Source: a virus (lineage: Duplodnaviria > Heunggongvirae > Uroviricota > Caudoviricetes). From it: DNA of 38,405 nt. The notes beneath the pieces are model-generated. The model was not told the DNA's origin, ran no database searches, and worked only from the letters and a program-made list of their open reading frames with translations. This document shows, piece after piece, positions 673 to 38,405 of the stretch. A program made the position numbers and the translations under genes. Where the stretch lies: the IMG/VR virus record IMGVR_UViG_2639762960_000007. One strand, 5' to 3'. Positions within the stretch are counted from its first letter, which is position 1; each line of letters begins with the position of its first letter.

Positions 673-1245
673 TTACATTTCAGGTTGCGTTATGACAGTC
701 CCAACAGGGTGATAGCGGTAGATCGTTGACAGTCCAATATCATAGATAATTGCCAGCCGCTTTCTGTCATACCCTTTCTGGAGCAATCTTGCGATCTGCT
801 CATGCTGCTCCTTCGTCAGTTTCGGGCGACGTCCTCCAACTCTTCCTTGTGCTCGCGCAGCAGCCAGTCCTGCCAGCGTGCGCTCAACTATCAGTTCACG
901 CTCCATTTCTGCCAGTGCACCCATCATATGAAAAAAGAACCTTCCCATCGGAGTGCTGGTATCGATTGAATCCGTCAGACTGCGAAAATTGACACCTTTT
1001 GCGCGTAGCTCTTCTGTGAGAGCAATGAGGTGTTTCATTCTTCTACCCAACCGATCCAGCTTCCAGACCACCAATGTATCCCCTCTTTTAAGGCACTTTA
1101 AAGCGCGTTTCAGGCCTGGTCGTTCCGACTTGGTTCCGCTCATTTTGTCCTCAAAAATCTGTTCACATCCTGCGCACATTAATGCATTGCGTTGCAAATC
1201 TGTGTTTTGGTCATTTGTTGACACACGTATGTAGCCAATCAGCAT
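673..1245 (-). CDS. gin: Serine-recombinase DNA invertase (Gin/Pin/Hin/Cin family)
   Basis: ATG at 1243..1245 gives 190 aa starting MLIGYIRVSTNDQ (catalytic Ser motif) with a C-terminal HTH (RKRLAIIYDIGLSTIYRY). The longer track ORF starts at a non-ATG codon upstream. It lies next to the tail-fibre inverted repeats. Confidence 0.9.
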   Translation of the reverse strand: MLIGYIRVSTNDQNTDLQRNALMCAGCEQIFEDKMSGTKSERPGLKRALKCLKRGDTLVVWKLDRLGRRMKHLIALTEELRAKGVNFRSLTDSIDTSTPMGRFFFHMMGALAEMERELIVERTLAGLAAARAQGRVGGRRPKLTKEQHEQIARLLQKGYDRKRLAIIYDIGLSTIYRYHPVGTVITQPEM

Positions 1246-1311
1246 TAAAAATACTCCCTTTTGAGTGGTTAAAGTACTGAGATAATGTGGGGAGGATTTG
1301 AGAGATAAACG

Positions 1312-1510
1312 TTGGTTTGGGGGAAGGCTCTGCATTGCCTGTTGGTGTACCGGTTCCATGGCCCACCGCCACACCGCCAGCAGGCTGGTTAAAGTGCGAC
1401 GGGCGCGCCTTTACAAAAGAACAATATCCTGTTCTGGCCAGAGTCTACCCGACCCTCCGTCTTCCTGATTTACGCGGTGAGTTTATCCGTGGATGGGACG
1501 ACGGGCGCAA
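1312..1510 (+). repeat. Left arm of a ~199-bp inverted repeat flanking the invertible tail-fibre segment
   Basis: Sequence from ttggtttgggggaaggctctgcattgcc to gggacgacgggcgcaa matches the reverse complement of about 2730..2928; verified by eye over the ends and several internal blocks. Confidence 0.85.
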
Positions 1511-1829
1511 AGTTGATACAGGACGTAAGTTGCTGTCCGCACAAGGGGCAACGCTGTTAAGAACAGCAATGCTGGATTATTATAACCAGGACACTACGGG
1601 AACCTCGGGGATAGTCGGCATGGGATTCAACAATGAAGATTCCATTACAGACCTTCGTGAGGGCAGCTTTAAAATGCCGGACGGGACAACATTCAGCGAT
1701 CCTGTCATGGCAATGTCAGACAATGGTATGCAGGCTACTATTCTGACCTCTATCAGAAGCGGGTATGCGAAGGGTATCACTGTCAGACCCCGTAGCATTG
1801 CACTTAATTACATTGTGAGGGCAGTTTAA
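1317..1829 (+). other. Silent alternative tail-fibre C-terminal cassette (Sv'-like); no ATG, would be fused to the fibre gene after inversion
   Basis: Frame opens at TTG inside the inverted repeat. The first ~63 aa are identical to an internal stretch of the fibre (GEGSALPVGVPVPWPTATPPAGWLKCDGRAF...GWDDGRK), followed by a divergent 106-aa tail ending NYIVRAV (the expressed copy ends NYIVRAA). Confidence 0.7.
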
Positions 1830-2443
1830 TGAGTAACACTGCAGTTCTGGATGAAAACGGTATCGCCACTGTAGCGGGCGATATCACTGTATATCACTAT
1901 GACGAGGAAACCCGGGAATACACCTCATCCTCTGTGGAGTATCTCGCCCTTGGGGTGGGTACTCCGGCACATTCGTGCGCCGATGCACCGCCGGAGGCAA
2001 TTTCGGGTTACGTGGTTTGTCGGACTGCCACGCTGAACGGGTGGGAGCATGTGCCTGATCACCGCGGCGAGACGGTATACAGCACGGAGAACGGTAACCC
2101 CGTTCTGATTACCCAACCGGGTGATTACCCGGCGGACACCACCACAAAACAGCCGGCCACGCCATGGGATACCTGGAACGGTGAGGCGTGGGTAACCGAT
2201 ACTGAACGGCAGCGAGCCGCAGAACTGGAGGTTGCCAGACAGCAACGCCAGCAACGGGTGAAACAGGCGATGGCGTCCGTCGATCTTATCAACCTCAAAC
2301 TGCGGGCAGGTCGCAGTCTGACACCAGAAGAAACGGCAAAACTGAACGCCGTGCTGGATTATATCGACGAGCTGAACGCACTGGATATCAGCACGGCACC
2401 TGAAATCAGCTGGCCGGAAGCGCCACTGGCACTTGCCAGCTGA
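1829..2443 (+). CDS. Tail fibre assembly (chaperone) protein, Tfa / Mu U-like
   Basis: ATG at 1829 overlaps the TAA of the upstream cassette, with GAGG upstream. 204 aa with the typical Tfa C-terminal region (AKLNAVLDYIDELNALDISTAPEISWPEAP). Confidence 0.75.
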   Translation: MSNTAVLDENGIATVAGDITVYHYDEETREYTSSSVEYLALGVGTPAHSCADAPPEAISGYVVCRTATLNGWEHVPDHRGETVYSTENGNPVLITQPGDYPADTTTKQPATPWDTWNGEAWVTDTERQRAAELEVARQQRQQRVKQAMASVDLINLKLRAGRSLTPEETAKLNAVLDYIDELNALDISTAPEISWPEAPLALAS

Positions 2444-2449
2444 ACGGTA

Positions 2450-4042
2450 TCACGCCGCCCTCACGATATAGTTAAACGCGATATTGCGGGGGCGGGTTAT
2501 GTTAAAGAATGCTCCGTTTAATTCGGCTTTTGCGCGACTGTTTGTTCCACCCAGAATTGCGTACCACAAATAATCGCTACGGTAATTCCCCGCAAACACC
2601 TTATCGCCGCCATAGTCAATATTATTTCCGTTACTCATGTACGAGATATCCAGCGAAGAATCGTTATCGTCATGACCGCCGACCAGTGTACCTTTCTGCC
2701 ATGAAAGCAACTTACGCCCCTCGTCAATCTTGCGCCCGTCGTCCCATCCACGGATAAACTCACCGCGTAAATCAGGAAGACGGAGGGTCGGGTAGACTCT
2801 GGCCAGAACAGGATATTGTTCTTTTGTAAAGGCGCGCCCGTCGCACTTTAACCAGCCTGCTGGCGGTGTGGCGGTGGGCCATGGAACCGGTACACCAACA
2901 GGCAATGCAGAGCCTTCCCCCAAACCAAGGTAATTGAGGACATCTTTTATACTGCCCTTAGCGATAATCGCGCGACCAATAGCTGTAAGGGTTGCCAGCG
3001 CTGCGCGGTCTGCTCCGGTAAAATAAGGCAACCGATCTGCTGCAGTGGCAAGTCCTGCGAGAGCAGTGAGCGTGGCATCTGCCGGTTGTTTTCCGTTTGC
3101 CAGATCGTATGCAGCCTTGACCGCTTTCGGTGTGGCGGCCAGTATTTCAGACGTGCTGTTGATGGCACTGCTCAGTTGTACGGTGCCTTTTGCCGTCAGC
3201 GAGGCAGCAGGCACTCCCGTTATCTGACTCCACGGGTGAGTGTGGCTGACGGGCGCCTTGCCGGCTGCAAGGTCGTATGCAGCCTTGACCGCCTTCGGCG
3301 TGGCAGCCTCAGTTTCTGATTGACTGTCCGTGGCGCTGCTCAGTTGTACGGTGCCTTTTGCCGTCAGTGAAGCCGCAGGCACTCCCGTTATCTGACTCCA
3401 CGGGTGAGTGTGGCTGGCAGGCGCCTTGCCGGCTGCCAGGTCGTATGCAGCCTTGACCGCTTTCGGTGTGGCGGCCAGCGTTTCAGACGTGCTGTTGATG
3501 GCACTGCTCAGTTGTACGATCCCTTTACGGGTCGTTGTTGCATCCTGGGCTGTGTATTTTCCCCGGGCCAGATCATACGCGATTTTCACAGCCTTCGGCG
3601 TGGCAGCCTCAGTTTCTGATTGACTGTCCGTGGCGCTGCTCAGTTGTACGGTGCCTTTTGCCGTCAGTGAAGCCGCAGGCACTCCCGTTATCTGACTCCA
3701 CGGGTGAGTGTGGCTGGCAGGCGCCTTGCCGGCTGCCAGGTCGTATGCAGCCTTGACCGCTTTTGGTGTGGCGGCCAGCGTTTCAGAGGTGCTGTTGGTG
3801 GCACTGCTCAGTTGGGTGAACCCCTTAGCTGTCAGTGTCGCGTCCGGGTGGTTACGGGAACGTACGTGTTCAGCCAGTGACTGTGCGGCTTCCTCCGTTT
3901 TCTTCTTCAGCCATTTCGTCCTGTTTGCCAGTTGCCGGGGGGCTCGATTTGATATCCCGTCTGCACCACCCAGAACCGGATCTGATGTCTCCAGTTGATA
4001 GATATTTTCTTCCCACTTTTCTGTTTCATTCAGGTTTCCCAT
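2450..4042 (-). CDS. Tail fibre protein with tandem phage-fibre repeats; C-terminal ~93 aa lie inside the invertible segment
   Basis: ATG at 4040..4042 (the track start at 4048 is TTG); the upstream gene's TGA sits at 4045..4047. Repeated SHTHPWSQITGVPAASLTAKGTVQLSSAT..ATPKAVKAAYDLA units are fibre-repeat-like. Lies directly downstream of the baseplate J/I genes. Confidence 0.85.
   Translation of the reverse strand: MGNLNETEKWEENIYQLETSDPVLGGADGISNRAPRQLANRTKWLKKKTEEAAQSLAEHVRSRNHPDATLTAKGFTQLSSATNSTSETLAATPKAVKAAYDLAAGKAPASHTHPWSQITGVPAASLTAKGTVQLSSATDSQSETEAATPKAVKIAYDLARGKYTAQDATTTRKGIVQLSSAINSTSETLAATPKAVKAAYDLAAGKAPASHTHPWSQITGVPAASLTAKGTVQLSSATDSQSETEAATPKAVKAAYDLAAGKAPVSHTHPWSQITGVPAASLTAKGTVQLSSAINSTSEILAATPKAVKAAYDLANGKQPADATLTALAGLATAADRLPYFTGADRAALATLTAIGRAIIAKGSIKDVLNYLGLGEGSALPVGVPVPWPTATPPAGWLKCDGRAFTKEQYPVLARVYPTLRLPDLRGEFIRGWDDGRKIDEGRKLLSWQKGTLVGGHDDNDSSLDISYMSNGNNIDYGGDKVFAGNYRSDYLWYAILGGTNSRAKAELNGAFFNITRPRNIAFNYIVRAA
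2730..2928 (-). repeat. Right arm of the ~199-bp inverted repeat (inside the tail-fibre coding sequence)
   Basis: Reverse complement matches 1312..1510. Confidence 0.85.
3050..3870 (-). repeat. Tandem near-identical coding repeats inside the tail-fibre gene
   Basis: Blocks such as ccgtcagtgaagccgcaggcactcccgttatctgactccacgggtgagtgtggctggcag recur at about 3361 and 3661 (300 bp apart), with a related copy near 3210. Confidence 0.8.
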
Positions 4043-4044
4043 AA

Positions 4045-5719: not shown

Positions 5720-6057
5720 AGCAGCTCCTGAGTCCGGGTCTGTCCGTCTGAGCCTTTCCAGCTCACCCGGAGCGTAAGATGTTCGCCGTCGACGGCGGGT
5801 TTAACTGACATAAGCTGGCAGCGGGGCTCCCAGCGCCGGATGGCATCGACGGATTCGCGAACCACATGCGGAATGGCCCGGTCGACAGGCCAGTCGATAT
5901 AAAGGTGCAGATTGCTGCCGAACTCCGGGCGATGCGGGTCGCTGCCGCGGGGAGTCCGCAGGATGATTTGGATGGACTGCCGGATATCATCCAGCCCCCT
6001 GACGATTTCGCCGGAAGCCTGCAGAGCTGGTTGCCAGAATACTGAGGTCGTTTTCAT
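5710..6057 (-). CDS. Baseplate protein, P2 gpW / T4 gp25-like
   Basis: 115 aa; ATG at 6055..6057; position between V-like and J-like genes. Confidence 0.75.
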   Translation of the reverse strand: MKTTSVFWQPALQASGEIVRGLDDIRQSIQIILRTPRGSDPHRPEFGSNLHLYIDWPVDRAIPHVVRESVDAIRRWEPRCQLMSVKPAVDGEHLTLRVSWKGSDGQTRTQELLWR

Positions 6058-6113
6058 GGAGGCAGTATTGCCCCCGGGAAGTAAGCGCCGATATTAAAGG
6101 CGTTTAAGAAGGT

Positions 6114-12338: not shown

Positions 12339-12435
12339 GATTGTGCTCCTGTGTAAGTTCAGGGCAGTATGTCGGGAGAAGCGCGTGACGGATATTAAAG
12401 GAGATTAAGAAGAAGGGGCCGGAGCCCCTGTGATG

Positions 12436-18420: not shown

Positions 18421-18466
18421 CCTCATTCGCTGGCAATGATAAATCACCCGCCTGAAGAGAGAAAAC

Positions 18467-25565: not shown

Positions 25566-25593
25566 CCAGCCCGGTACCCGAACACCGGGCTGG
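25566..25593 (-). terminator. GC-rich hairpin (10-bp perfect stem, 8-nt loop); candidate minus-strand terminator
   Basis: ccagcccggt-acccgaac-accgggctgg; on the minus strand it is followed by tcgttctttc. Confidence 0.35.
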
Positions 25594-25698
25594 CCATCGC
25601 CCCACAGGAATGCGCTGTGAGCCGACCAAGGTTCAGTCAGTCTCGCGAGACCAGACTAGCCTGCCATATTTTTTATAATTGTAAAAGGCTTACAGATT

Positions 25699-27664: not shown

Positions 27665-27666
27665 GA

Positions 27667-28744: not shown

Positions 28745-29152
28745 TTAACCCACATTTTTTAACCGCTCAATCGTTGCGGATAATTCCTTCAGTTGTTTTT
28801 CCATCTCAATCACACGCTGTTTTTCTTCAGCGCCTCGCATGAGATCTCGCCGAACCTCAGGATCTAACTGGTTTAGAAGTTCAAGCATTTTAAGGTCTGA
28901 CGGGCTGAATTGATGTTGTGTTGGTACAGCAACAATTTCTTTAGATGGAATATGTTCTTTACCGGTAAGTAGCCAATCGATTGATACACCCAAATGGGTA
29001 CTTAGCGCAACAAGAGCCTCTGCGTTTGGTTCTCTCTCTCCACGCAAATAGTTTTGAAGTGAGCGATATGGAATTTTTGATAAGTCAGATAATGCCTTTA
29101 TTGTCATGCCATTAGCATCCATCACTTCACGCAATCTCTCTTTTGTACTCAT
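28745..29152 (-). CDS. Phage repressor, HTH (XRE/Cro-C1 type) with C-terminal coiled coil
   Basis: ATG at 29150..29152 gives 135 aa starting MSTKERLREVMDANGMTIKALSDLSKIPYRSLQNYLRG; divergent from the early operon across an operator-like region. Confidence 0.7.
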   Translation of the reverse strand: MSTKERLREVMDANGMTIKALSDLSKIPYRSLQNYLRGEREPNAEALVALSTHLGVSIDWLLTGKEHIPSKEIVAVPTQHQFSPSDLKMLELLNQLDPEVRRDLMRGAEEKQRVIEMEKQLKELSATIERLKNVG

Positions 29153-29168
29153 TTGAACATATCTCAAT

Positions 29169-29196
29169 TTGACACACTCATTTGGGTGTGTACAAT
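29169..29196 (+). promoter_or_regulatory. Candidate early promoter (-35 TTGACA, 16-bp spacer, -10 TACAAT) overlapped by an operator-like dyad
   Basis: TTGACA at 29169..29174 and TACAAT at 29191..29196, 45 bp upstream of the Ner-like ATG; dyad ACACAC-N8-GTGTGT (29172..29191) spans the spacer. Confidence 0.5.
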
Positions 29197-29240
29197 AGAC
29201 CCAATAGAGTACATCATAACCTAACAGGAACACGGTGCAT

Positions 29241-29465
29241 ATGAACAAACAACAAGTTCGGGCACGGCTGGTTGAACGAGGCAGTAGCTTGCGCCAGTTC
29301 GCGCTTAACGCGGGCTATGAACCACGAACAGTCACCCAGGCAGTCAGTCGCTGGGCTGGTAAAAGTGAACTACCTCGCGGTCGTTTGACTTATCGGATTT
29401 TGCGAGATCTATCGGTTGCAATAGGTAAAGAAGTTACCCCCGGTATCCTTAAGGAGGCGTCATGA
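29241..29465 (+). CDS. ner: Ner-like DNA-binding protein
   Basis: ATG at 29241 (track start is GTG two codons upstream); 74 aa with LRQFALNAGYEPRTVTQAVSRW resembling the Mu Ner HTH region; first gene of the early operon. Confidence 0.65.
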   Translation: MNKQQVRARLVERGSSLRQFALNAGYEPRTVTQAVSRWAGKSELPRGRLTYRILRDLSVAIGKEVTPGILKEAS

Positions 29466-29770
29466 ATAAACCAAATACATCAAGCTCAGGTATCCGTATT
29501 TTGCGCGTTCTTAAGGCCTTACGTGGCCACGCTTTGAACGGTGTTTCTAACGGGGAACTAGCGGTTGCACTGCACGAATCACCGGCAAACATCAACCGGG
29601 CACTTAACACGCTCATTGAAGAAGGGTTGGCTCTGAAACTAGAAAACGGGCGTTTCGCACCAGGCATCCAGTTGCTGCAGATCGCCATGGCCCACAGTAA
29701 CGAGATGGCACGTGCACAGGATCGCATTAACGAAATCAACCAACGTGTTATTTCAGGTAGTCGTTTGTAA
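29462..29770 (+). CDS. Winged-helix-like DNA-binding protein
   Basis: 102 aa; ATG at 29462 in ATGA overlap with the Ner-like stop, preceded by AAGGAGG; helix-turn-helix-like region NGVSNGELAVALHESPANINRALNTLIEEGLA. Confidence 0.5.
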   Translation: MNKPNTSSSGIRILRVLKALRGHALNGVSNGELAVALHESPANINRALNTLIEEGLALKLENGRFAPGIQLLQIAMAHSNEMARAQDRINEINQRVISGSRL

Positions 29771-29780
29771 GGAGTAATCA

Positions 29781-30692
29781 ATGGGACGCACCAAATCACC
29801 GGTTAGCACTGAACTGAACGTCGAGGTACCGCTGTCGGATGATCTCAATGTCAGTCTAAACGCCATGACACAGCATCGCATGGAAATCATGCAACAGTTC
29901 GGCGATGGTCTGCCTTATGAGCGCGATCGTGTTGTCCATGAGGCACGCTTTTATATGGCACAGAGCGCTGAGGCCATGCTGGAGGCAGGTAAGCGGCTGA
30001 TAATCCTTAAGGAAAATGAACCACACGGGGAGTTTATAAAGATTCTTGAAAGTGAGTTGGGGCTGGCATACCGGACATCTGTGAGAATGATGCAAGCATC
30101 GACAAAATACTTATCCCCGGCGCTGAAACCAAATGTGCCAACGTTGGCACATTTGGGAAAAGCCAAACTTTTCGAATTAATGACAGAAGACGACGAAGAG
30201 CTTGCCGAACTGGCCGACGGCGGCACAGTTGCCGGCCTGACGCTTGACGACGTTGATCGCATGTCAGTACGCGAACTTCGCCAGGCCCTGCGCGAAGCGC
30301 GCGAAACCAACGCAGCACAACAGCGCGTACTCGCCGATAAAAATGAAAAAATTGATTCTCTCTCTACCAGACTGGAAAAGAAATCCCGTATTCAGCTGCC
30401 TGAGCCTGATGAGGAGGTTAAGAAGCTGCGGGCGGAAGTGACAGCATTAGCGGTTGAGGCGGAATCTGCCATCGCCGTTCGACTGTCCAGCGCTTTTGAG
30501 ACACTGTGCGCATATTGTGCTGAAAACATGATTGATACCCCCAGAGACTTCATGGCAGGCCTGGTCTGTCAACTGGAAAGCACAGCGCGTAGCCTGCGCT
30601 CCACATTTGACCTGCCGGACGAGCCAACAGGCGATGTCGCGCCTTCATGGCTGACTGAGCCGACGCCACAGATTAACGGGCTGGAGGCATAA
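29781..30692 (+). CDS. Hypothetical early protein with coiled-coil central region
   Basis: 303 aa; ATG at 29781 preceded by AAGGAG; no motif I can assign. Confidence 0.55.
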   Translation: MGRTKSPVSTELNVEVPLSDDLNVSLNAMTQHRMEIMQQFGDGLPYERDRVVHEARFYMAQSAEAMLEAGKRLIILKENEPHGEFIKILESELGLAYRTSVRMMQASTKYLSPALKPNVPTLAHLGKAKLFELMTEDDEELAELADGGTVAGLTLDDVDRMSVRELRQALREARETNAAQQRVLADKNEKIDSLSTRLEKKSRIQLPEPDEEVKKLRAEVTALAVEAESAIAVRLSSAFETLCAYCAENMIDTPRDFMAGLVCQLESTARSLRSTFDLPDEPTGDVAPSWLTEPTPQINGLEA

Positions 30693-30695
30693 CCA

Positions 30696-32465
30696 ATGAA
30701 TGCTGCCCTGACTGAACGACTGGTTTATGTCGCCCGCGCGGCACGTGACGCGGGGCATGGTAAACGCGGTGCAATATACGACGCTGCCTGTGCTGAACTT
30801 GGCATGTCCCGCGCCACTCTGCTGCGCAGGCTGAAGGAGGTCTCTGTGACTGATAAACGCAAAAAACGCGCCGATGCCGGGCGCAGCGCCCTGACCCGCG
30901 ACGAAGCCGCGCTGATATCTGCCACACTGCGTGAGGCCACCCGCAAGAACGGTAAGCGTCTCTATTCCATCGCAGATGCAGTGGAAACCCTGCGGGCTAA
31001 CGGCTTTATCTCCGCAGGCAGAACAGATGAAACCACCGGTGAGTTTTTCCCGTTGTCCGAAGATGCCATCAGCCGTGCCCTGCGTAACTATGGCCTGCAC
31101 CCGGAACAACTGGATGCCCCTGCGCCGCATACCGAAGTGGCCAGTCTGCATCCCAATCACGTCTGGCAGATTGATGCCTCGCTCTGCACGCTTTACTACC
31201 TGAGCAATGGACACAAAGGGCTGCAGGTGATGGACAGCGCGAAATTCTACAAGAACAAGCCCGCTAACCTTGCCCGTATCGCCAGTGACCGCGTGTGGAG
31301 TTATGAGATTACCGACCATGCCAGCGGCTGGATTTACGTTGAGTATGTGACGGGTGCGGAATCCGGTGAGAACCTGTGTTCTGTGCTTATCAACGCCATG
31401 CAGGAGCGTGGCGGCGCAGACGTGCTGCACGGCGTGCCAAAAATACTCTATCTCGACCCCGGCTCGGCAAACACCGCGGGTATGACGAAAAACATGTGCC
31501 GCTCACTGGGCATTGACCTGATAGCGCACAAGCCGCATAACGCCCGCGCCACCGGACAGGTGGAAAAGGCGCGGGACATTATCGAACGCAAGCTGGAGCC
31601 GGGTCTGAAGTTCCGGCCGGTTCACAGTCTGGAAGAACTCAACGCGCTGGCCGCGAAATGGCGCAGCCACTTTAACGCCACGGCTGTTCACAGCCGCCAC
31701 GGTAAAACCCGCACGGATATCTGGCTGAAGATTACTGCTGAGCAGCTGAAAAAAGCGCCTTCCGTTGAGGTATGTCGTGAACTGGCTGTGGCGGCACCAG
31801 AACTCCGCAAAGTCACGCCAAAACTTCGTGTCTCGTTCCGGGGCACTGAATTTGACGTATCAACGGTACCGGGCGTACTGGTTGGTGAAAAACTGATGAT
31901 TACCCGTAACCCATGGCGCAGCGATGTGGCACAGGTGGTTCTGACCGGTGAGGACGGCCACGAGACGTTCTTCCTGGTCGAAGAGGTCAGAAAGAACGAG
32001 TTTGGCTTTGCTGAAGGCGCGGCGGTATTTGGCGAAAGTTACAAAGCCCTGCCGGAAACCCCGGCACAGATGGCGGCAAAAGAAACTGAAGCGCTGGTTA
32101 CCGGTACAGACAACGCCGCAGATGCAGCCGCCGCACGCAAGGCGAAGGCGCTGCCGTTCGGCGGGCGGCTTGACCCGTATAAACATATCGACGACACCAC
32201 ACTTCCGGCCTATATGCCGAAGCGTGGTCAGGCCTCTGACGTACGCGGGCCGCGCACTGAACAACGTCCCATGACTCATGTGGAGGCCGCGAAAGCCCTG
32301 CGCGATAAGTTCAGCGCCGACGGCCTTACCTGGACGCCGGAACATTACCGCCAGTTAACGGCACAGTACCCGGACGGCGTACCGGAAGCCGCACTGGATG
32401 AAGTCATGGCCACGCTGACCACACCGGCCAGCAGCAGTGTTATCAGCATTGTTAACGGCAACTGA
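30696..32465 (+). CDS. DDE transposase (Mu A-like function, integrase-core type)
   Basis: 589 aa; ATG at 30696 preceded by GGAGG; N-terminal HTH-like region; candidate catalytic acidic residues in WQIDAS and YLDPGSAN, with a downstream Glu. Confidence 0.8.
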   Translation: MNAALTERLVYVARAARDAGHGKRGAIYDAACAELGMSRATLLRRLKEVSVTDKRKKRADAGRSALTRDEAALISATLREATRKNGKRLYSIADAVETLRANGFISAGRTDETTGEFFPLSEDAISRALRNYGLHPEQLDAPAPHTEVASLHPNHVWQIDASLCTLYYLSNGHKGLQVMDSAKFYKNKPANLARIASDRVWSYEITDHASGWIYVEYVTGAESGENLCSVLINAMQERGGADVLHGVPKILYLDPGSANTAGMTKNMCRSLGIDLIAHKPHNARATGQVEKARDIIERKLEPGLKFRPVHSLEELNALAAKWRSHFNATAVHSRHGKTRTDIWLKITAEQLKKAPSVEVCRELAVAAPELRKVTPKLRVSFRGTEFDVSTVPGVLVGEKLMITRNPWRSDVAQVVLTGEDGHETFFLVEEVRKNEFGFAEGAAVFGESYKALPETPAQMAAKETEALVTGTDNAADAAAARKAKALPFGGRLDPYKHIDDTTLPAYMPKRGQASDVRGPRTEQRPMTHVEAAKALRDKFSADGLTWTPEHYRQLTAQYPDGVPEAALDEVMATLTTPASSSVISIVNGN

Positions 32466-32475
32466 GGAGGGAAAC

Positions 32476-33642
32476 ATGCTGGTACTGAAGCAGCAACTGA
32501 AAGAGGCCCGTATTCCACAGGCGGTGGTGGCGAGAGCTGTCGATGTTTCTGAGGCCACGCTGGCCCAGATTGTGAATCATAACGCGTGGCCCCGCACCAG
32601 CCCCGGAGAAGTGCGCCGGCGTCTTGCGTCCTGGCTGGAAAGTCAGGGGATTGATACAACGAAGAGTTTTGATGCTGTACAGGGCGCGGCCACGCCCCGT
32701 ACAGCGGGTACCACAGATAAAACGAGCCTCAGTGAGGAAGAGAATATGTTACTCAAAAAACAGGTGTTATTTCCAGCAACCAAAAAAGCGTTTGGTCTTT
32801 TCCGTGACCCGTTCGCCGACGAAGCCATGCAGGGTTCTGATGATGTGTTCACCACCCCGGATATTCGCTACGTGCGTGAGGCGTTGTACCAGACAGCCCG
32901 TCATGGTGGGTTTATGGCCGTCATCGGTGAGTCCGGTGCGGGTAAATCCACGCTGCGCCGCGACCTGACTGAACGTATCAACCGCGAGAATGCGCCGGTA
33001 ATTGTTATCGAGCCATACATCATCGCTATGGAAGACAACGATGTGAAAGGGAAAACCCTGAAGGCAGCAGCGATTGCCGAAGCCATTATCAGTACCATCG
33101 CACCACTGGAAAGCATCAGACGCAGTCAGGACGCCCGCTTTCGCCAGTTGCATCGCGTCCTGAAAGACAGCAGCCAGGCGGGGTTCAGCCACGTTCTGGT
33201 GATTGAGGAGGCCCACAGTCTGCCCATTCCGACACTGAAACACCTCAAACGCTTTTTTGAGCTGGAGTCCGGTTTCAAAAAACTGCTGTCCATCGTGCTG
33301 ATTGGCCAGCCGGAACTGGCGACAAAACTGTCTGAACGCAATATGGAAGTCCGTGAAGTCGTTCAGCGCTGTGAGGTGGTCGAACTTCTGCCTCTGGACA
33401 ATAACCTTGAAGAGTTTCTGACGTTCAAACTGCAACGGGCCGGTAAACAACTGACGGACATTATGGACGCCAGCGCAGTGGATGCCATACGTGCCCGCCT
33501 GAGCAATCCGGGAAGTCATCGTAAAAATATGGTCAGCCTGCTGTATCCGCTGGCCGTCAGTAACCTGGTAATAGCCGCCATGAATCTGGCCGCTGAAATC
33601 GGGGTTCCACAGGTCAACGCTGACGTTGTCAAAGGGGTTTAA
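32476..33642 (+). CDS. Transposition ATPase (Mu B-like, AAA+)
   Basis: ATG at 32476 preceded by GAGGAGGG (track ORF starts earlier, inside the transposase gene); Walker A GESGAGKST and Walker B-like HVLVIEEAH. Confidence 0.8.
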   Translation: MLVLKQQLKEARIPQAVVARAVDVSEATLAQIVNHNAWPRTSPGEVRRRLASWLESQGIDTTKSFDAVQGAATPRTAGTTDKTSLSEEENMLLKKQVLFPATKKAFGLFRDPFADEAMQGSDDVFTTPDIRYVREALYQTARHGGFMAVIGESGAGKSTLRRDLTERINRENAPVIVIEPYIIAMEDNDVKGKTLKAAAIAEAIISTIAPLESIRRSQDARFRQLHRVLKDSSQAGFSHVLVIEEAHSLPIPTLKHLKRFFELESGFKKLLSIVLIGQPELATKLSERNMEVREVVQRCEVVELLPLDNNLEEFLTFKLQRAGKQLTDIMDASAVDAIRARLSNPGSHRKNMVSLLYPLAVSNLVIAAMNLAAEIGVPQVNADVVKGV

Positions 33643-33644
33643 TA

Positions 33645-33914
33645 ATGAAATCCACCACAGGTATCAACCAGCAAATCAGCAAAGTGCAGTCAGCCATTAT
33701 GGCGCTTAAGGCGACGAACACGGATGTACAAAGCATCACCATCAGGGGTAACAAACCTGTCATCCGCGTTTCCCGGAGTGCGCATTGCATGCGCATGCTT
33801 GAGCAGGGAAAGGCCTGTTATCTGTATACCGGTCATGACCACAGGGGACATTTCCGTCAGGGCGTTTTCGAACTGCACGGCTGTCGCGTCGTGTGGCCGG
33901 AATCTTTGTGGTAA
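33645..33914 (+). CDS. Hypothetical small early protein
   Basis: 89 aa; ATG at 33645, 2 nt after the B-like stop; Cys/His-containing C-terminus. Confidence 0.45.
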   Translation: MKSTTGINQQISKVQSAIMALKATNTDVQSITIRGNKPVIRVSRSAHCMRMLEQGKACYLYTGHDHRGHFRQGVFELHGCRVVWPESLW

Positions 33915-33941
33915 TCAGCACAACAGGAGGAGTCATAAAAT

Positions 33942-34472
33942 ATGGCAAAAAGTACAAAAGGGGCAAAACGTATCAAAGCCGCAGCAGCACTCTGGGTGCC
34001 GGGGACACGCGAAGAGGTCATTGAGGGAATCAGACTGCTTGGTGACGCGCAACGTGAACTGGTCAGGGCTGAAACAGAAATGAATGACACCATTGGCGAC
34101 ATCACTGCACGTTATGCCCCGCTCACCGAGAGCCTGAAAAAACGCATGGCCGAACTGCAGTCCGGTATCCAGACATGGTGTGAGGCGCACCGTGATGAAC
34201 TGACCGGCAACGGGAAGGTGAAGTTCGCTAACCTCACCACCGGCGAGGTGCAGTGGCGAAACCGTCCGCCGTCAGTCAGCATTCGCGGGGCGGATAATGT
34301 TATTGAATTACTGAGACGTCTGGGGCTTGAGCGCTTTATTCGTGTAAAGGAGGAAATAAATAAAGATGCCATTCTGAATGAAAAAGAGGCTGTGAAAAAT
34401 ATTCCCGGTATTACCATAAAAAGTGATATTGAGGATTTTTCAATAATTCCTTTTGAGCAGGATGTGCAGTAA
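33942..34472 (+). CDS. gam: Host-nuclease inhibitor Gam (Mu Gam family, Ku-like DNA-end binding)
   Basis: 176 aa; ATG at 33942 preceded by GGAGGAG. It resembles Mu Gam along the whole length as I recall it, including the shared C-terminal motif GIEDFSIIPFEQ. Confidence 0.9.
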   Translation: MAKSTKGAKRIKAAAALWVPGTREEVIEGIRLLGDAQRELVRAETEMNDTIGDITARYAPLTESLKKRMAELQSGIQTWCEAHRDELTGNGKVKFANLTTGEVQWRNRPPSVSIRGADNVIELLRRLGLERFIRVKEEINKDAILNEKEAVKNIPGITIKSDIEDFSIIPFEQDVQ

Positions 34473-34569
34473 ACACACCACGTTAATTATTTAATAAAAA
34501 CATTTTCTTTTTTATTCCGGCGTCAGCGCCGCGGGCTTCTGCACGCCGGAAACAGAGGAGAATTAAATT

Positions 34570-34764
34570 ATGATATTTAAATGTATTCAGTGCGAGAGGG
34601 ATATAACAGCCCTGCGTTTTCACAGCGCCATCGCCGTGATGTCCGGTAAGTATCACATACCTGCAGTACGTGTCACCCTGGTCTGCCCGTACTGCAGCCA
34701 GCATTTTTCGGCGGACGTGCCCGTCATAGAATTCTCCCGCCCTGACAGGGAGGACGCGCAATGA
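34570..34764 (+). CDS. Small zinc-ribbon protein, Com-like
   Basis: 64 aa; ATG at 34570 preceded by GAGGAG; two CxxC pairs (FKCIQCERDI and LVCPYCSQHF). Confidence 0.45.
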   Translation: MIFKCIQCERDITALRFHSAIAVMSGKYHIPAVRVTLVCPYCSQHFSADVPVIEFSRPDREDAQ

Positions 34765-35033
34765 TTACCCCACAGGAAGCACGACAGCGCACCCGAACTC
34801 TTGTTGAACACTATGTCAACGAGTGTGAATGCCGCGACCTCACCGATGTGAAGCACGTCCTGACGGCGCTAATCAGCATGGCCACACAGGCCATTGTGGC
34901 GACCAACGGAAAGGAGGCTGCCCTGCAGGTACTGATGAACACACTCACCCACACGGCAGAGCATGAGGTGCCGTACCGGATGGAAACCACTGCAGAAGGC
35001 GGCCTGCACATCACCGTCAGCCGGAAGCACTGA
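34761..35033 (+). CDS. Hypothetical early protein
   Basis: 90 aa; ATGA overlap with the upstream gene. Confidence 0.45.
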   Translation: MITPQEARQRTRTLVEHYVNECECRDLTDVKHVLTALISMATQAIVATNGKEAALQVLMNTLTHTAEHEVPYRMETTAEGGLHITVSRKH

Positions 35034-35042
35034 GGGCGCGGC

Positions 35043-35339
35043 ATGACACGAAACACCGAACTCACCCGCACCGCCCTCTACCGTCTGGCCCTGCAGCGTT
35101 TCGGGCCGGACGCACAGGCCCTGAAACTGACAGAAGAGGCCGCTGAACTGGCGGCCAGTGCTGCCCGCAATCTGAACGGACAGGGCAGCGAAAGTGACCT
35201 CGCGGCAGAGCTGGCAGACGTGGAAATCATGACAGAGCAACTGCGCCTTCAGGGGATGGACCGGCTGATTGACTTCCACAAACAGAAAAAACTGGAACGT
35301 CTGGCTGCACGACTGGGCGTGATTTACACGAACGAGTAA
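35043..35339 (+). CDS. MazG-like nucleotide pyrophosphohydrolase domain protein (tentative)
   Basis: 98 aa; ATG at 35043 preceded by GAGGG; acidic helices LTEEAAELAASAA and AELADVEIMTEQL resemble the EExxE/D motifs of small MazG-like proteins. Confidence 0.4.
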   Translation: MTRNTELTRTALYRLALQRFGPDAQALKLTEEAAELAASAARNLNGQGSESDLAAELADVEIMTEQLRLQGMDRLIDFHKQKKLERLAARLGVIYTNE

Positions 35340-35353
35340 CCGGGAGGCATTCA

Positions 35354-35569
35354 ATGGCTGACATACTCAGGGAAATCACCGCATGGACACTGATTCTTAC
35401 TGGCCTGGCGACATGCCTCAGTGCGGGGGCAGCCCTGGCTGCCCTGCTGATGCACATAACAACACAGTGGTTATGGGAAAAGCTTAAAGCAGCATACAGC
35501 CTGAAAGAGCTGTCCGACGCTGTCCGGGCATGGAAACGGCAGAAAAATACCGGAGATACAGAACAATGA
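35354..35569 (+). CDS. Small membrane protein
   Basis: 71 aa; ATG at 35354 preceded by GGGAGG; hydrophobic segment WTLILTGLATCLSAGAALAALLM. Confidence 0.45.
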   Translation: MADILREITAWTLILTGLATCLSAGAALAALLMHITTQWLWEKLKAAYSLKELSDAVRAWKRQKNTGDTEQ

Positions 35570-36249
35570 CAGACCAGAATAAACACATTGAGAAACTGAA
35601 AAAGTTGCTGGCGCTGGCCGCATCCGGCAACCCGCACGAGGCCGCTCTGGCACTGCGCCGAGCCCGTAAACTGATGGATGTTCACGGCATCACACATTCC
35701 GACATTGCTATGAGTGATATTGATGAAACCATCAGTCATTACTGGCCGACAGGCAGTCTCCGTCCACCGCGCTACATGCTGGGCCTGATGAACATCATCC
35801 GCGAGGCATTTGGTGTTAACTCCATCATTCACCCCGGCACGCATCCGTCTGTGGGGTTCTACGGTAACCGGGAACGAGCGGCACTGGCTGCGTACACCTG
35901 GGAAGTGCTGGTCCGCCAGCTGAAAAAGGCGCGTCAGCAGTATATCAGCGCACAGAACAAAAGAATAAAAAACGCCACCCGTACCAGCCGTGGAGACCAG
36001 TTTGCTGAAGGCTGGGTACTGGCCGTTATCAGTGAAATACAGTCCTTTGCCCTGACCGATGATGAGCGTGAACTGATGCAACAGTGGCTGGAACATAAAT
36101 ACCCGCAGACGCAAACCACCAGGGCGCGTAAACCGGGAAGAAGCCGCAATGGCGACGCCTCGCGCTATGCGGGGTTTCGTGAAGGGCAGAACGTCAGACT
36201 GCACCGCCCGGTCAGTGGGCAGGAACAACAGAAACTGGAGGCCAGATGA
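35566..36249 (+). CDS. DUF2786-like phage protein
   Basis: ATG at 35566 in ATGA overlap with the upstream gene, preceded by GGAGA; N-terminus IEKLKKLLALAASGNPHEAALALRRARKLMDVHGI matches the DUF2786 signature as I recall it. Confidence 0.55.
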   Translation: MTDQNKHIEKLKKLLALAASGNPHEAALALRRARKLMDVHGITHSDIAMSDIDETISHYWPTGSLRPPRYMLGLMNIIREAFGVNSIIHPGTHPSVGFYGNRERAALAAYTWEVLVRQLKKARQQYISAQNKRIKNATRTSRGDQFAEGWVLAVISEIQSFALTDDERELMQQWLEHKYPQTQTTRARKPGRSRNGDASRYAGFREGQNVRLHRPVSGQEQQKLEAR

Positions 36250-36476
36250 TTACGCTATCAGGTAACAGCCGGAAATTAAAAGCCTGCCGAATATCTGCCA
36301 GATACCTTTTTGCCCGCGCCTTTTTTAAGAACGTCAGGCCGGGGATCACAATTGGTGTTATTGCCGGACGCGAACAGGTTGAAAAATACATGTCAGGTGC
36401 ATGGTGGAATAACGACCCTGTCATTGCTGCCCGTAATATTCATATCGAATGGGGAGGTATTCAGAATGACTACTGA
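36246..36476 (+). CDS. Hypothetical small protein
   Basis: 76 aa; ATG at 36246 overlapping the upstream stop. Confidence 0.35.
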   Translation: MITLSGNSRKLKACRISARYLFARAFFKNVRPGITIGVIAGREQVEKYMSGAWWNNDPVIAARNIHIEWGGIQNDY

Positions 36477-36672
36477 AACCATTGTCTGTTTTCTTTTCTG
36501 GTATATGTACGCAGGATCATGCAGCGCAAGACTTCATCGTTCCCTGGGCTATGGCAGGCACTACGACACCGCGCATTACATCCTGTACATGACCGCCGTC
36601 ATGTTGTTCTGGCCAGTCACCCTGCCAGCTGCAACCGACATTGTTGCCGACAGACTGAAAAAAAGGAGATGA
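36466..36672 (+). CDS. Small membrane protein
   Basis: 68 aa from ATG 36466 preceded by GGGGAGG; two hydrophobic segments. Confidence 0.4.
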   Translation: MTTETIVCFLFWYMYAGSCSARLHRSLGYGRHYDTAHYILYMTAVMLFWPVTLPAATDIVADRLKKRR

Positions 36673-36673
36673 T

Positions 36674-37123
36674 ATGCAGAAAAAACGCCTGATACAGCTT
36701 ATCCATATTGCCCGTAATGAACTGGGTATGGATGAAGACACCTACCGCCAGATGTTACAGGGGCTGACCGGTAAAGCCTCAACCAAAGGAATGGATACCA
36801 CACAACTAAACTGCGTGCTGGAATCCATGAAAAAGAAAGGCTTTCGCGTTAAACCAGCCAGAAAAGCCAGCTCCGGTTTACCGCTGGATAACCATCCGCA
36901 GTCCAGGAAAATTCGTGCGCTATGGCTTGAAATGGCTGCTGCCGGCATTGTTCGTGACCGTTCAGAAAATGCATTAGCGCGGTGGATCAAGCGGGAAACG
37001 GGCATCAGCGCCCTGCGCTGGCTCAATACTGAACAGGCAAGCAGTGTTATTGAGAAACTGAAGAAGTGGCAGCACAGAGCTGCGGGAGTAAAACATGAGC
37101 GACCTGAATCAGTTTCGAAGTAA
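36674..37123 (+). CDS. gemA: GemA-like protein (Mu gp16 family)
   Basis: 149 aa; ATG at 36674 preceded by AAGGAGA; N-terminal LIQLIHIARNELGMDEDTYRQMLQGLTGKAS matches the GemA signature; sits immediately upstream of mor. Confidence 0.75.
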   Translation: MQKKRLIQLIHIARNELGMDEDTYRQMLQGLTGKASTKGMDTTQLNCVLESMKKKGFRVKPARKASSGLPLDNHPQSRKIRALWLEMAAAGIVRDRSENALARWIKRETGISALRWLNTEQASSVIEKLKKWQHRAAGVKHERPESVSK

Positions 37124-37493
37124 AGGGCCGGAACTCCTGGTGGAGCTGGCACAGCATACCTCTGAGACCGTTCGCGAGATTATTGATATTGAGCCCGCAA
37201 TTGCCGACCAGATTGGTCAGGCCGTCGCGAACCGAATGATGCAGGTCTGGGGCGGGCAAAACGTTTATTTCCCGATGGGCATGGTATGGAAGGTCAGTCA
37301 GCGCGACCGGGAAATCTTCAGGGAGTTTAACGGACGCAACCACCACGAACTGGCCCGCAAGTTTGGTGTTTCGCTTCAGTGGGTCTACAGCGTGGTTAAG
37401 CGGGTCAGAAAAGAAGAACTGGATCGGATGCAGGGCAGGTTGTTTGATGAAGATCTGCCAGAGGAGACGAAAGACGTTAACAAATCCAGATAA
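37095..37493 (+). CDS. mor: Mor-family transcription activator (middle operon regulator)
   Basis: 132 aa; ATG at 37095 preceded by GGGAG; C-terminal HTH ELARKFGVSLQWVYSVVKR resembles Mor/C family; overlaps the gemA 3' end. Confidence 0.8.
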   Translation: MSDLNQFRSKGPELLVELAQHTSETVREIIDIEPAIADQIGQAVANRMMQVWGGQNVYFPMGMVWKVSQRDREIFREFNGRNHHELARKFGVSLQWVYSVVKRVRKEELDRMQGRLFDEDLPEETKDVNKSR

Positions 37494-37536
37494 TTCCTGC
37501 TTGTTAAAGTCCTTTCAAAAATCTCCTTATTGTATA

Positions 37537-37569
37537 AAAGCACGGTAGACCCCTTACCGTGCTTTTTTT
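37537..37569 (+). terminator. Rho-independent terminator after mor
   Basis: aaagcacggta-gacccct-taccgtgcttt followed by a T-run, 44 nt after the mor stop. Confidence 0.75.
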
Positions 37570-37607
37570 ATGCTCTCTCTTTAGTATTCAGGATGCAGGG
37601 AGAAAAT

Positions 37608-38240
37608 ATGTTTGACGTTTCGTTGTTAAATCTGCCATGGGCAACACTGGTGACCCTGACCAGTGGCTATATTGGGTATTTTATTGCGAATGTGGGACTG
37701 AAGGATCACCACAAGCCCATTGAGGTGACTTTTTCTTCGCTGATTTTTGGCCTGACAGCAATGATGGCTTACCAGGCTGTTATGTGGGCAGGTCTGAATG
37801 CCTGGCTGGCAACACCACCAGCACTTCTGTGTGCCGTTACATGCGGTGCGTGGTGGCGCAGGTACGGTCGCAAATGGATGTACAGATTACTGTGGAATAA
37901 TGATGTTTCATGGTCTGACGATACCAGCTCAGCATGGCAGGCAATGTTTGATCAAACAGGCTTCAGCGTTACCGAGGTCAGAGTGATTCTTCGCGATGGT
38001 TCCGGTATGATGTCACGGCTGCCAGGGAACTTTGAAGAGTGGCCTAACGGTCCGTTTACCCTGGGGAATAAAGGCGATATGGTTCTTTACGTCACGCACA
38101 GCAGCCCTTCAGGCAGTAACGAATGGGAAGAGTATAAAGGCGTGGTTGATAAGTACTGGGGAGCTCTGGCAACCTATATTCCAGCAGATCAGATTGCCAG
38201 AGTGGAGATCAGGCGCGTTCGTGCAACGAACGATGAATGA
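37608..38240 (+). CDS. Membrane protein (three N-terminal TM helices plus ~110-aa soluble C-terminal domain), function unknown
   Basis: ATG at 37608 preceded by AGGGAG gives 210 aa (track ORF starts upstream inside the terminator); hydrophobic segments WATLVTLTSGYIGYFIANV, VTFSSLIFGLTAMMAYQAVMWAGL and ALLCAVTCGAWW. Confidence 0.55.
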   Translation: MFDVSLLNLPWATLVTLTSGYIGYFIANVGLKDHHKPIEVTFSSLIFGLTAMMAYQAVMWAGLNAWLATPPALLCAVTCGAWWRRYGRKWMYRLLWNNDVSWSDDTSSAWQAMFDQTGFSVTEVRVILRDGSGMMSRLPGNFEEWPNGPFTLGNKGDMVLYVTHSSPSGSNEWEEYKGVVDKYWGALATYIPADQIARVEIRRVRATNDE

Positions 38241-38405
38241 TGTTTATTTTTTCCCTGGGGCAGGGGCTGCCGGCATAGTGGTTTTATTGGCAGAGGAAGA
38301 CGATTCTCCTTTTCTACCGGAATCGCGCTCGAACGTCACGATGTGCTTGCTTTTGGGCTTTTCTGAGTAATCCAGGCTATCATGCTTATTGTTTTGAGTA
38401 GTCAT

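Follow-up and report, generated by a model that had tools for sequence, protein, structure and literature searches.

General Features of the Prophage

The window, the whole stretch of 38,405 nucleotides analysed here, contains nearly the whole of a single Mu-like transposable E. coli prophage, 38 kb in length. The genes are arranged in two blocks, one for early and transposition functions and one for lysis, head and tail, which run in opposite directions away from an internal immunity region (Table 1). Positions 595-38405 are 100% identical to the 38,007-bp prophage of E. coli N61 and GIMC1410, and identical copies are already contained in RefSeq E. coli genomes. Escherichia phage PhiKM (PQ738613), which bears the label Bcepmuvirus in GenBank, is 95-98% identical to the window; close relatives of the prophage have already been isolated as phages.

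The layout was taken, in window coordinates, from the RefSeq annotation of the identical N61 prophage. This annotation confirms the reading of an earlier note, made from the letters alone, that the early genes run rightward on the plus strand and the late genes leftward on the minus strand. The same note had placed the repressor and the transposase internally and the invertase at one terminus; this is also the case, the invertase gene lying 78 bp from the prophage end. The relative orientations of the early and late genes were confirmed by tblastn and blastn comparison with BcepMu and Mu. On the late side, plus-strand exceptions can be noted: the fibre-tip copy with the assembly gene (1317-2443) and the dam gene.

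Table 1. Features of the prophage and its flank in window coordinates
Feature	Position	Strand	Basis or details
Host flank, interrupted ydjK (MFS transporter)	1-594	-	Outside the element; 100% ydjK match in >4000 E. coli genomes
Tail-fibre/invertase-side prophage end	595-640	+	Opens 5'-TG; junctions in N61 and GIMC1410
Gin-type serine DNA invertase	673-1245	-	76% aa identity to Mu Gin; RefSeq: recombinase family protein
Invertible tail-fibre segment	1309-2931	.	229-nt inverted repeats 1309-1537 and 2703-2931, 96% complementarity
Alternative (switched-off) fibre tip	1317-1829	+	
Tail-fibre assembly gene	1829-2443	+	
Late gene cluster, holin to tail fibre	2450-25451	-	RefSeq annotation; collinear tblastn to BcepMu genes 21-52
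Predicted late promoter, upstream of gpW baseplate gene	6064-6107	-	Dyad TTAA-ACGCCT-TTAA; -10-like CAATAC/AATACT (6070-6064)
Predicted late promoter, upstream of tail assembly chaperone and tape measure	12366-12408	-	Dyad TTAA-TCTCCT-TTAA; -10-like CATACT (12371-12366)
Predicted P_I, upstream of protease/scaffold gene	18283-18325	-	Dyad CTAA-AGCAGA-TTAA; -10-like CAAACT (18288-18283)
Predicted P_lys	25477-25520	-	Dyad ATTAA-CGCTGT-TTAAA (25520-25505); TGT-GATGCT, -10 at 25482-25477
Candidate terminator	25553-25598	-	Strong hairpin then GUUCUUUC; between repressor/cargo transcription unit and P_lys
D12-class DNA adenine methyltransferase (dam-like)	25699-26469	+	Pfam PF02086 7e-28; PADLOC type II MTase 4e-115
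Low-GC cargo pair downstream of repressor	26459-28674	-	GC 0.42-0.44
401-aa protein, hydrophobic C-terminal stretches	26459-27664	-	Weak KwaA match 8e-5 (PADLOC)
NA37-family nucleoid-associated protein	27667-28674	-	Pfam NA37 1e-80
Cro/CI-type HTH repressor	28745-29152	-	Pfam HTH_3 3e-12, Phage_CI_repr 1.5e-6; NCBIfam DicA/RstR-like
Candidate early promoter Pe	29169-29196	+	TTGACA-16-TACAAT
Early operon	29241-37493	+	RefSeq names, tblastn, Pfam, NCBIfam
Ner-like HTH	29241-29465	+	
HTH regulator	29462-29770	+	
DUF3102 protein	29781-30692	+	
rve transposase	30696-32465	+	
AAA+ ATPase	32476-33642	+	
Gam	33942-34472	+	
GemA	36674-37123	+	
Mor, last gene of the early operon	37095-37493	+	RefSeq: Mor transcription activator family protein
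Variable cargo, Mor-side end	37608-38405	.	phrog_12870 and phrog_15726 matches
210-aa protein	37608-38240	+	
53-aa ORF	38244-38405	-	

Prophage Ends and Insertion Sites

The similarity of the window to prophage-bearing genomes begins at 590-595, and together with the junctions in N61 and GIMC1410 this places the start of the element at 595 and not at 673, the position given in the earlier note. Two GCGATAAATG repeats are located at 606-615 and 629-638, 23 bp apart; they are putative transposase-binding sites, and this perfect pair is unique to the end within the window. The other end, which the note had proposed to look for past position 38405, was found through N61: the element stops 196 bp further, at the equivalent of 38601, which leaves no room for another gene there.

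In the two complete copies, N61 and GIMC1410, the prophage termini are TGATGC...TGATCA (TG...CA), and the copies are flanked by the 6-bp target duplications GCTATC and TCGTGG. With ydjK in the window, three chromosomal sites of the prophage were found in all. The insertion into ydjK probably occurred by transposition, and the Mor-side junction of this copy, which lies beyond the window, is expected to read ...CATTTATCTCATGTCTGATCA, then TTTCAG and the remaining ydjK. Such termini, varied insertion sites and a target duplication agree with a BcepMu-like element. The ends of BcepMu have the same design, with a terminal TGA and two repeats, and TG...CA termini have been cited for BcepMu relatives (PMC2628397).

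Late Genes and the Probable Tail-Fibre Switch

The late cluster encodes a holin, SLT endolysin and spanin, followed by TerS, TerL, portal, F, G, protease/scaffold and capsid proteins, P2-like sheath, tube, tape measure and baseplate proteins, and the tail fibre. The RefSeq names of the tail genes include tail protein X, late control D and the baseplate V, W and J homologues. Collinear matches to BcepMu gp27-gp52 were found by tblastn at 23-76% aa identity. Read leftward, the order is the repressor and the cargo, which is probably expressed in the lysogen, then lysis, head and P2-like tail genes, and finally the Gin-type invertible tail-fibre segment.

Gin/Cin-like crossover sequences (...CCAAACC-AA-..., with a central AA) are located at the outer arm edges of the inverted repeats. 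The invertase gene thus adjoins a segment with inverted crossover-like sites, an arrangement that probably represents a switch of the Gin/Cin/Pin/Hin (Din) type, in which tail-fibre C-termini are exchanged.

Early Operon, Repressor and Cargo

By its position, the repressor is the equivalent of BcepMu gp17. Beside its gene lies the candidate early promoter Pe, which matches the consensus at 11/12 positions, has the top score within 24.8-30 kb and holds an inverted repeat, ACACAC-N8-GTGTGT, in its spacer. This strong predicted sigma-70 promoter would drive the early operon rightward. Small ORFs are present in the operon between Gam and GemA.

The transposase shows 68.5% aa identity to BcepMu gp09 over 581 residues (tblastn). 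Among domain models, it matches only Pfam rve, the NCBIfam IS481/IS21 matches being weak. It is an rve-type DDE enzyme, Tn552/IS1604-like by description, and is not related to MuA. A BLASTP comparison revealed no similarity of the transposase, the ATPase and the repressor to MuA, MuB and Mu c.

The Mor protein consists of 132 aa and shows 56% aa identity to BcepMu gp01, 31% to Mu Mor (2e-12) and 35% to Mu C (5e-12). Members of the Mor/C family are small proteins (~100-150 aa) with a C-terminal HTH and a conserved GGxxxYxP linker; the size agrees, and the linker is contained in WGGQNVYFPMG. A profile that combined Mu Mor, Mu C, BcepMu gp01 and the Mor of the window was run against all six frames of the window and of the missing 196 bp. 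It matched 37092-37490 with E=6e-57, the next best match having E=0.3; a tblastn search at E up to 50 likewise revealed no second Mor/C gene. Mor is consequently the sole Mor/C-family gene, with no separate C-like activator, as the earlier note had stated for the window.

Phrog_5023 was matched in the low-GC cargo pair downstream of the repressor, and this pair was found in 19 of 5426 genomes. At the Mor-side end, the similarity of many relatives ends at 37450-37453. PADLOC and Pfam searches with the right-end ORFs gave no match.

Comparison with BcepMu and Mu

According to Lavigne et al. 2009 (PMC2771037), the BcepMu genome falls into two clusters: the bottom strand carries genes 1-13, the top strand carries genes 17-52, and the control of lysogeny is located where the clusters meet. 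The earlier note had likened the layout to the BcepMu-type arrangement, and tblastn and blastn bear this out, both the late and the early genes matching BcepMu in the same order. The collinear set comprises every late gene, with the tail-fibre N-terminus and the holin as its limits, and, on the early side, the HTH regulator, DUF3102 protein, transposase, ATPase, GemA and Mor. Since every BcepMu match is on one, opposite strand, the genomes are collinear end to end. The back-to-back layout of early and late genes was correctly recognised but is not new, having already been published for Burkholderia phage BcepMu.

Divergent clusters with the repressor at the interface are common to the window, BcepMu, PhiKM and a Klebsiella phage KP12 clone (OM835952). 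Other features shared with the BcepMu group are the Tn552/IS481-like rve transposase with an ExeA-like AAA+ partner (59% aa identity to that of BcepMu), the DUF3102 gene, GemA, the holin/SLT endolysin/spanin cassette, a Mu-like head with a P2-like tail, TG...CA termini with two repeats per end, and transposition into varied sites. A single Mor/C gene adjoins one end of the element; in the BcepMu annotation (NC_005882), this gene is gp01. The differences are that BcepMu has an acyltransferase and no inversion system, whereas the prophage has the Gin-type invertase and an invertible tail-fibre segment; that BcepMu has no Gam match, whereas the Gam of the prophage is Mu-like, with 61.5% aa identity to Mu Gam; and that BcepMu has other cargo in place of the dam gene, the NA37-family protein, the 401-aa protein and the right-end ORFs.

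Like Mu (NC_000929; Muvirus), the prophage is a transposable myovirus with TG...CA ends, and the two are similar in size. Their Gam, GemA, Mor/C, TerL, portal, F and G proteins are homologous, and both have, at the late end, a Gin invertase and a tail-fibre segment that it can invert. A further likeness, predicted in the case of the window, concerns the late promoters: four of them depend on an activator and have a dyad ~43 bp before the start but no -35 element. Unlike Mu, the prophage has one Mor/C gene instead of two, a P2-type tail module, no com/mom, an internal repressor and an early block opposite to the late genes. The target duplications of the two complete copies are 6 bp long; those of Mu are 5 bp long.

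The earlier note had described the early region as inverted relative to Mu. In comparison with Mu, the late genes and the invertase are indeed on one strand and gam, gemA and mor on the other, so the description holds for these three early genes. It does not hold for the transposase, the ATPase and the repressor, which have no homologues in MuA, MuB and Mu c; the early module is therefore a different one that is oppositely oriented, not a flipped Mu module.

Two other explanations of the strand switch were considered. The strand switch and the low-GC stretch (0.42-0.44) at 26-29 kb could resemble a junction, near 25.5-29.2 kb, between two unrelated abutting elements, a Mu-like early one on the right and a P2/Mu-like late prophage on the left. 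However, the entire 38,007-bp unit with both modules moves as one to the three chromosomal sites, each complete copy has a single TG...CA end pair with a 6-bp duplication, no end-like repeat pair was found between the early and late modules in the window, and the isolated phages PhiKM and BcepMu have both modules in the same arrangement. The case of two adjacent elements, which the note had named as its own refutation, is refuted by the junction analysis. The orientation might also be a strain-specific rearrangement or an assembly artefact, in which the early block of a Mu-type collinear phage was flipped by recombination or by the invertase, whose gene looks active. This is very improbable, because the same orientation is found in independent genomes, KP12, PhiKM and BcepMu, the transposition genes differ from those of Mu, and the sole long inverted repeat pair revealed by a search of the window bounds the tail-fibre segment, with none around the early block.

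We are highly confident that the window represents one complete-type BcepMu-like transposable myovirus prophage, with two blocks diverging around an internal immunity region. The assignment to a BcepMu-like phage is meant in the broad sense: the clusters are divergent, the repressor, lysis, head and tail genes lie on the strand opposite to the early/transposition genes, and the head/terminase genes are Mu-like while the order of the tail genes is P2-like. Under the usual ICTV criterion, the members of a genus are about 70% or more identical to its type species in nucleotide sequence over the whole genome. In this strict sense, the prophage falls outside Bcepmuvirus, as BcepMu aligns to 23% of the window at a mean identity of ~68% (blastn) and gives no match by megablast. 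It does not belong to Muvirus either, which is marked by MuA/MuB transposition proteins and the collinear order c, ner, A, B ... mor, C and late genes, given its own transposition genes and the strand of its early block.

Predicted Late Promoters and Regulation

The pattern YTAA-N6-TTAAWATC, with one mismatch or fewer, has exactly four matches in 38.4 kb, all on the late strand and intergenic; 0.15 chance matches are expected, an optimistic figure, as the pattern was derived from the same four sites. The distance from the dyad centre to the centre of the -10-like hexamer, read from the sequence, is 33 bp at three of the sites; at the remaining one it is 33 or 34 bp. Other motifs were less useful. 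The 5 matches of RWTTAAAATC did not exceed the 5.8 expected by chance. With 2 mismatches allowed, TAAMGCNNNTTAAAA yielded numerous weak matches that were not used, though its two perfect matches led to the final dyad. A pattern that joined the box to the -10 had the wrong spacing across the loci and gave no information.

Independent support for the four predicted promoter boxes comes from cross-phage conservation only. The same dyad sites are present in KP12, and three of them in BcepMu; P_lys is conserved in KP12, PhiKM and BcepMu. Among relatives with 72-75% aa identity, P_I has kept an invariant box and -10 between diverged flanks, while the box is mostly absent from more distant relatives (36-49% aa identity in the protease gene).

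The published Mor site of Mu has 16 bp, with two 5-bp inverted repeats and a G/C-rich hexamer spacer, and lies at -51 to -36 of a promoter with no extended -10. A text search of Howe-lab and structural papers did not yield its printed sequence, and the dyad was placed on Mu DNA by deduction from the text (G at -57, A at -54, element at -51 to -36, no TGn). Mu has AGTAA-AGCCGG-TTAAT just 3' of mor, which fits the published description. The dyad/-10 spacing in the window equals the geometry reported for Mu Mor at Pm. Activators of the Mor/C family bind a dyad centred near -43.5 of promoters with a -10 but no -35 element.

These similarities suggest that one activator may switch on the late genes directly. 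A single Mor-family protein would bind the YTAA-N6-TTAA dyad, whose centre lies about 33 bp before the weak -10 hexamers, and so directly activate the four opposite-strand late promoters; the cascade would then have two tiers (early to late) instead of the three of Mu. A different possibility is that three tiers are kept, Mor activating an intermediate gene whose product, a late activator outside the Mor/C family and perhaps a small ORF product, reads the boxes. Candidates for such a factor exist among some ten ORFs of the early operon and the cargo genes, none of which has a function assigned to it, and the link from Mor to the boxes is predicted from the sequence. Nevertheless, the boxes agree with the known Mor site of Mu Pm in both architecture and spacing, BcepMu likewise has one annotated Mor/C gene, and the only other dyad in the window is within the invertase gene, so there is no fifth box ahead of any candidate regulator gene. 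We regard a three-tier cascade as unlikely.

Since the repressor operon is directed toward the lysis genes, stable lysogeny would need a dedicated terminator upstream of P_lys. The candidate hairpin could serve here: the fold of 25545-25615 (minus strand) has -34.2 kcal/mol with z = -3.1, although the U-tract is weak and a simple terminator scan does not list it. Such a terminator would keep lysogenic transcription of the repressor and cargo out of the co-directional lysis genes. Taken as a whole, the proposed BcepMu-type two-tier cascade has, in our estimation, an even chance of being correct: Mor, encoded at the end of the early operon, would directly activate the lysis, head protease, tail chaperone and gpW promoters through the dyads, lysogeny would require the terminator upstream of P_lys, and the gpW promoter may give a leaderless mRNA.

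Significance of the Prophage

The discovery value of the divergent early/late layout is small, as it is a published hallmark of BcepMu-like phages. The practical value lies in the annotation, namely the exact ends, the target duplication of 6 bp and ydjK as the host gene that is interrupted. The four candidate Mor-dependent late promoters form a testable set, which would make it easy to study regulation in this common but little-studied group of E. coli prophages.

Identity and Boundaries of the Prophage

The prophage in the window is already present in public genomes, and its arrangement is already known. A search of complete E. coli genomes found prophages with 100% identity to window positions 595–38405 in strains N61 and GIMC1410, and 643 of 5426 complete E. 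coli genomes carry parts of the early region. Among phage records, megablast showed 95–98% identity across most of the window with Escherichia phage PhiKM (PQ738613), classified in GenBank as Bcepmuvirus, and about 85% identity with the Klebsiella phage KP12 clone (OM835952).

The N61 copy interrupts a cysteine hydrolase gene, and the GIMC1410 copy is inserted between fadM and ybaV. The junctions delimit an identical 38,007-bp unit, which starts with TGATGCGCCGCGCGATAAATG, ends with CATGTCTGATCA and is bordered by direct duplications of 6 bp (GCTATC and TCGTGG in the N61 and GIMC1410 copies). Both ends carry two G(C/A)GATAAAT(G/A) repeats 23 bp apart, the two-repeat design of the ends of Burkholderia phage BcepMu (NC_005882). 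The element starts at 595 and would end at the equivalent of 38601; the window lacks only the final 196 bp, too little to conceal a gene. The earlier note had considered a second boundary between the early and late modules, which would make them two adjacent elements. This is refuted by the three insertion sites, the two complete copies each having a single end pair and a single duplication. In the window, perfect end repeats were found only at 606–638 and none between the modules, and the single long inverted repeat pair lies within the tail-fibre segment.

Features of the window; gene rows follow the RefSeq annotation of the identical prophage, transferred to window coordinates
Feature	Position	Strand	Basis
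Host gene ydjK	1–594		
Invertase	673–1245	-	RefSeq annotation
Alternative fibre tip and assembly gene	1317–2443	+	RefSeq annotation
Tail fibre to holin	2450–25451	-	RefSeq annotation
dam	25699–26469	+	RefSeq annotation
401-aa protein	26459–27664	-	RefSeq annotation
NA37-family protein	27667–28674	-	RefSeq annotation
HTH repressor	28745–29152	-	RefSeq annotation
Early operon, GemA and Mor last	29241–37493	+	RefSeq annotation
Two cargo ORFs	37608–38405		RefSeq annotation
YTAA-N6-TTAAWATC box	25502–25519	-	Pattern match, intergenic
YTAA-N6-TTAAWATC box	18308–18325	-	Pattern match, intergenic
YTAA-N6-TTAAWATC box	12391–12408	-	Pattern match, intergenic
YTAA-N6-TTAAWATC box	6090–6107	-	Pattern match, intergenic

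Comparison with BcepMu and Mu

In tblastn, all late proteins match BcepMu genes 21–52, in order and on one strand, and the early proteins match genes 1–12 on the other. Every match has the opposite orientation to the window, which makes the two genomes mirror images of each other in collinear order. The transposases are 68.5% identical, the ATPases 59% and the Mor proteins 56%, and identity reaches 76% in the sheath. In BcepMu the genes form two clusters, and lysogeny is controlled where they meet (Lavigne et al. 2009, PMC2771037). Late proteins and the invertase match Mu on the opposite strand, whereas Gam (61.5%), GemA and Mor match it on the same strand; blastn orientations agree for both phages. 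As read from these alignments, the early block is inverted relative to Mu, and its arrangement is exactly that of BcepMu. The inversion and the BcepMu-type arrangement, both claimed in the earlier note, are confirmed.

A simply flipped Mu was rejected, since BLASTP revealed no similarity of the transposase, ATPase and repressor to MuA, MuB and Mu c. Pfam recognises only an rve core in the transposase, which has weak similarity to IS481/IS21; the partner ATPase is of the AAA_22 (ExeA-like) kind and the repressor of the Cro/CI HTH type. The first early gene shows only faint Ner likeness (E = 0.009).

The prophage also differs from BcepMu, which is without tail-fibre inversion (Lavigne et al. 2009, PMC2771037). 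It has a Gin-type invertase (76% aa identity to Mu Gin), a 1.6-kb invertible segment with 229-nt inverted repeats and Cin/Gin-like crossover sequences, a Mu-like Gam, a dam methylase and low-GC cargo.

Tail-Fibre Segment and Other Repeats

The invertible segment (1309–2931; arms 1309–1537 and 2703–2931) is asymmetric. The tip now fused to the fibre gene is 84 aa in length (2702–2450) and is not followed by an assembly gene; in the silent orientation there is a 97-aa tip (1538–1829) together with a tail-fibre assembly gene (1829–2443). Crossover-like sites, TTCCCCCAAACC-AA-CGTTTATCTC and TTCCCCCAAACC-AA-GGTAATTGAG, are located at the outer arm edges. Three repeats of 282 nt lie within the tail-fibre gene (3099–3848). 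The tape measure gene (2952 nt vs. 2466 nt in KP12) has a tandem 261-nt duplication with 93% identity (9495–10016), coinciding with a PhiKM sequencing gap.

The gap between the G and protease (I) genes holds a hairpin or palindrome (window 18386–18423; BcepMu 18739–18753), its loop TTTATAAAGG being common to the E. coli and Burkholderia phages. It is near the prophage middle, in the gap where the Mu record annotates a gyrase cut site, and may act as a terminator or as a counterpart of that site.

Cargo, dam and the Repressor Region

The cargo pair (26459–28674, minus strand, GC 0.42), directly downstream of the repressor, encodes an NA37 (YejK-like) nucleoid-associated family protein and a 401-aa protein with hydrophobic C-terminal stretches (phrog_5023; weak PADLOC KwaA match, 8e-5). 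The pair is present in 19 of 5426 complete E. coli genomes, adjoins the same DNA adenine methylase gene in the 12 genomes listed, and may provide defence or conversion functions expressed in the lysogen. The dam gene (D12-class DNA adenine methyltransferase), located between the early and late blocks, is convergent with the cargo operon, overlapping its last gene by 11 bp, and divergent from P_lys, the predicted late promoter before holin. Variable cargo also occupies the Mor-side end (37454–38405), with a 210-aa protein (phrog_12870) and a 53-aa ORF (phrog_15726); similarity to many related prophages, PhiKM and KP12 ends at 37450–37453.

The top sigma-70 match of the central region, the candidate early promoter Pe (TTGACA-16-TACAAT, 29169–29196), precedes the first early gene by 45 bp. 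Its spacer contains an inverted repeat, ACACAC-N8-GTGTGT, and GTAC-AATAGA-CCC-AATAGA-GTAC is directly downstream. ACTCATTTG occurs twice, about 29 bp apart, in the 88-bp gap that separates the repressor from the first early gene (29146–29240). The repeats of this gap are candidate operators. A simple scan found no good minus-strand repressor promoter.

The repressor and cargo genes are directed at the lysis genes, so read-through would be harmful. A hairpin at 25553–25598 (17-bp stem, -34 kcal/mol, z = -3.1), followed by GUUCUUUC and directly upstream of the P_lys box, is a plausible, unproven insulator against it.

Single Mor/C-Family Gene and Predicted Late Promoters

Mu Mor, Mu C, BcepMu gp01 and the window's Mor were combined into a profile, which was run against all six-frame ORFs of the window and of the 196 bp that it lacks. 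The profile matched 37092–37490 (E = 6e-57; next best E = 0.3) and found no second Mor/C-family gene there, so the earlier statement that Mor is the only one in the window holds to the element end. Likewise, gp01 is the only such gene in the BcepMu annotation.

A box found upstream of the holin and head protease genes is also present in KP12, PhiKM and BcepMu. The pattern YTAA-N6-TTAAWATC has exactly four matches in the window with at most one mismatch, all late-strand and intergenic, vs. 0.15 expected by chance. The pattern was derived from the sites recovered, so conservation is the only independent support for the four predicted promoters. KP12 has the same four sites, and BcepMu has three clear ones in equivalent gaps. 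Among relatives whose protease genes are 72–75% identical, neither the box nor the -10 region varies, but the intervening stretch of roughly 12 nt and all upstream sequence have diverged.

The bare dyad YTAA-N6-TTAA has one extra site in the window (TTAAGGCACTTTAA, 1088–1101; also KP12 441–458), located about 150 nt into the invertase gene. It may be due to chance or related to the recombinational enhancer inside gin-type genes.

At three sites, a -10-like hexamer (GATGCT, preceded by TGT; CAAACT; CATACT) is centred 33 bp downstream of the dyad centre, and at the fourth, the distance is 33 or 34 bp (CAATAC or AATACT). No convincing -35 was found at the four predicted promoters. At the baseplate gene gpW, the predicted -10 AATACT (6069–6064, minus strand) ends 7 nt before the ATG (6057), and no Shine-Dalgarno precedes it (6055–6070, minus strand), which suggests a leaderless gpW mRNA. 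The sequence ...GGCAAyAyKGCC.CCATG at the gpW start is kept in KP12, PhiKM and BcepMu.

The published Mor site is 16 bp, with two 5-bp inverted repeats and a G/C-rich hexamer spacer, at -51 to -36, with G at -57, A at -54 and no extended -10. The Mu sequence directly 3' of mor, AGTAA-AGCCGG-TTAAT, fits this description, and with that placement, the Mu -10 centre is also 33 bp from the dyad. Given the shared box architecture and spacing, we propose the Mor-family protein as the direct late activator. The late genes of this prophage are probably switched on directly by this single protein, which would activate four late transcription units.
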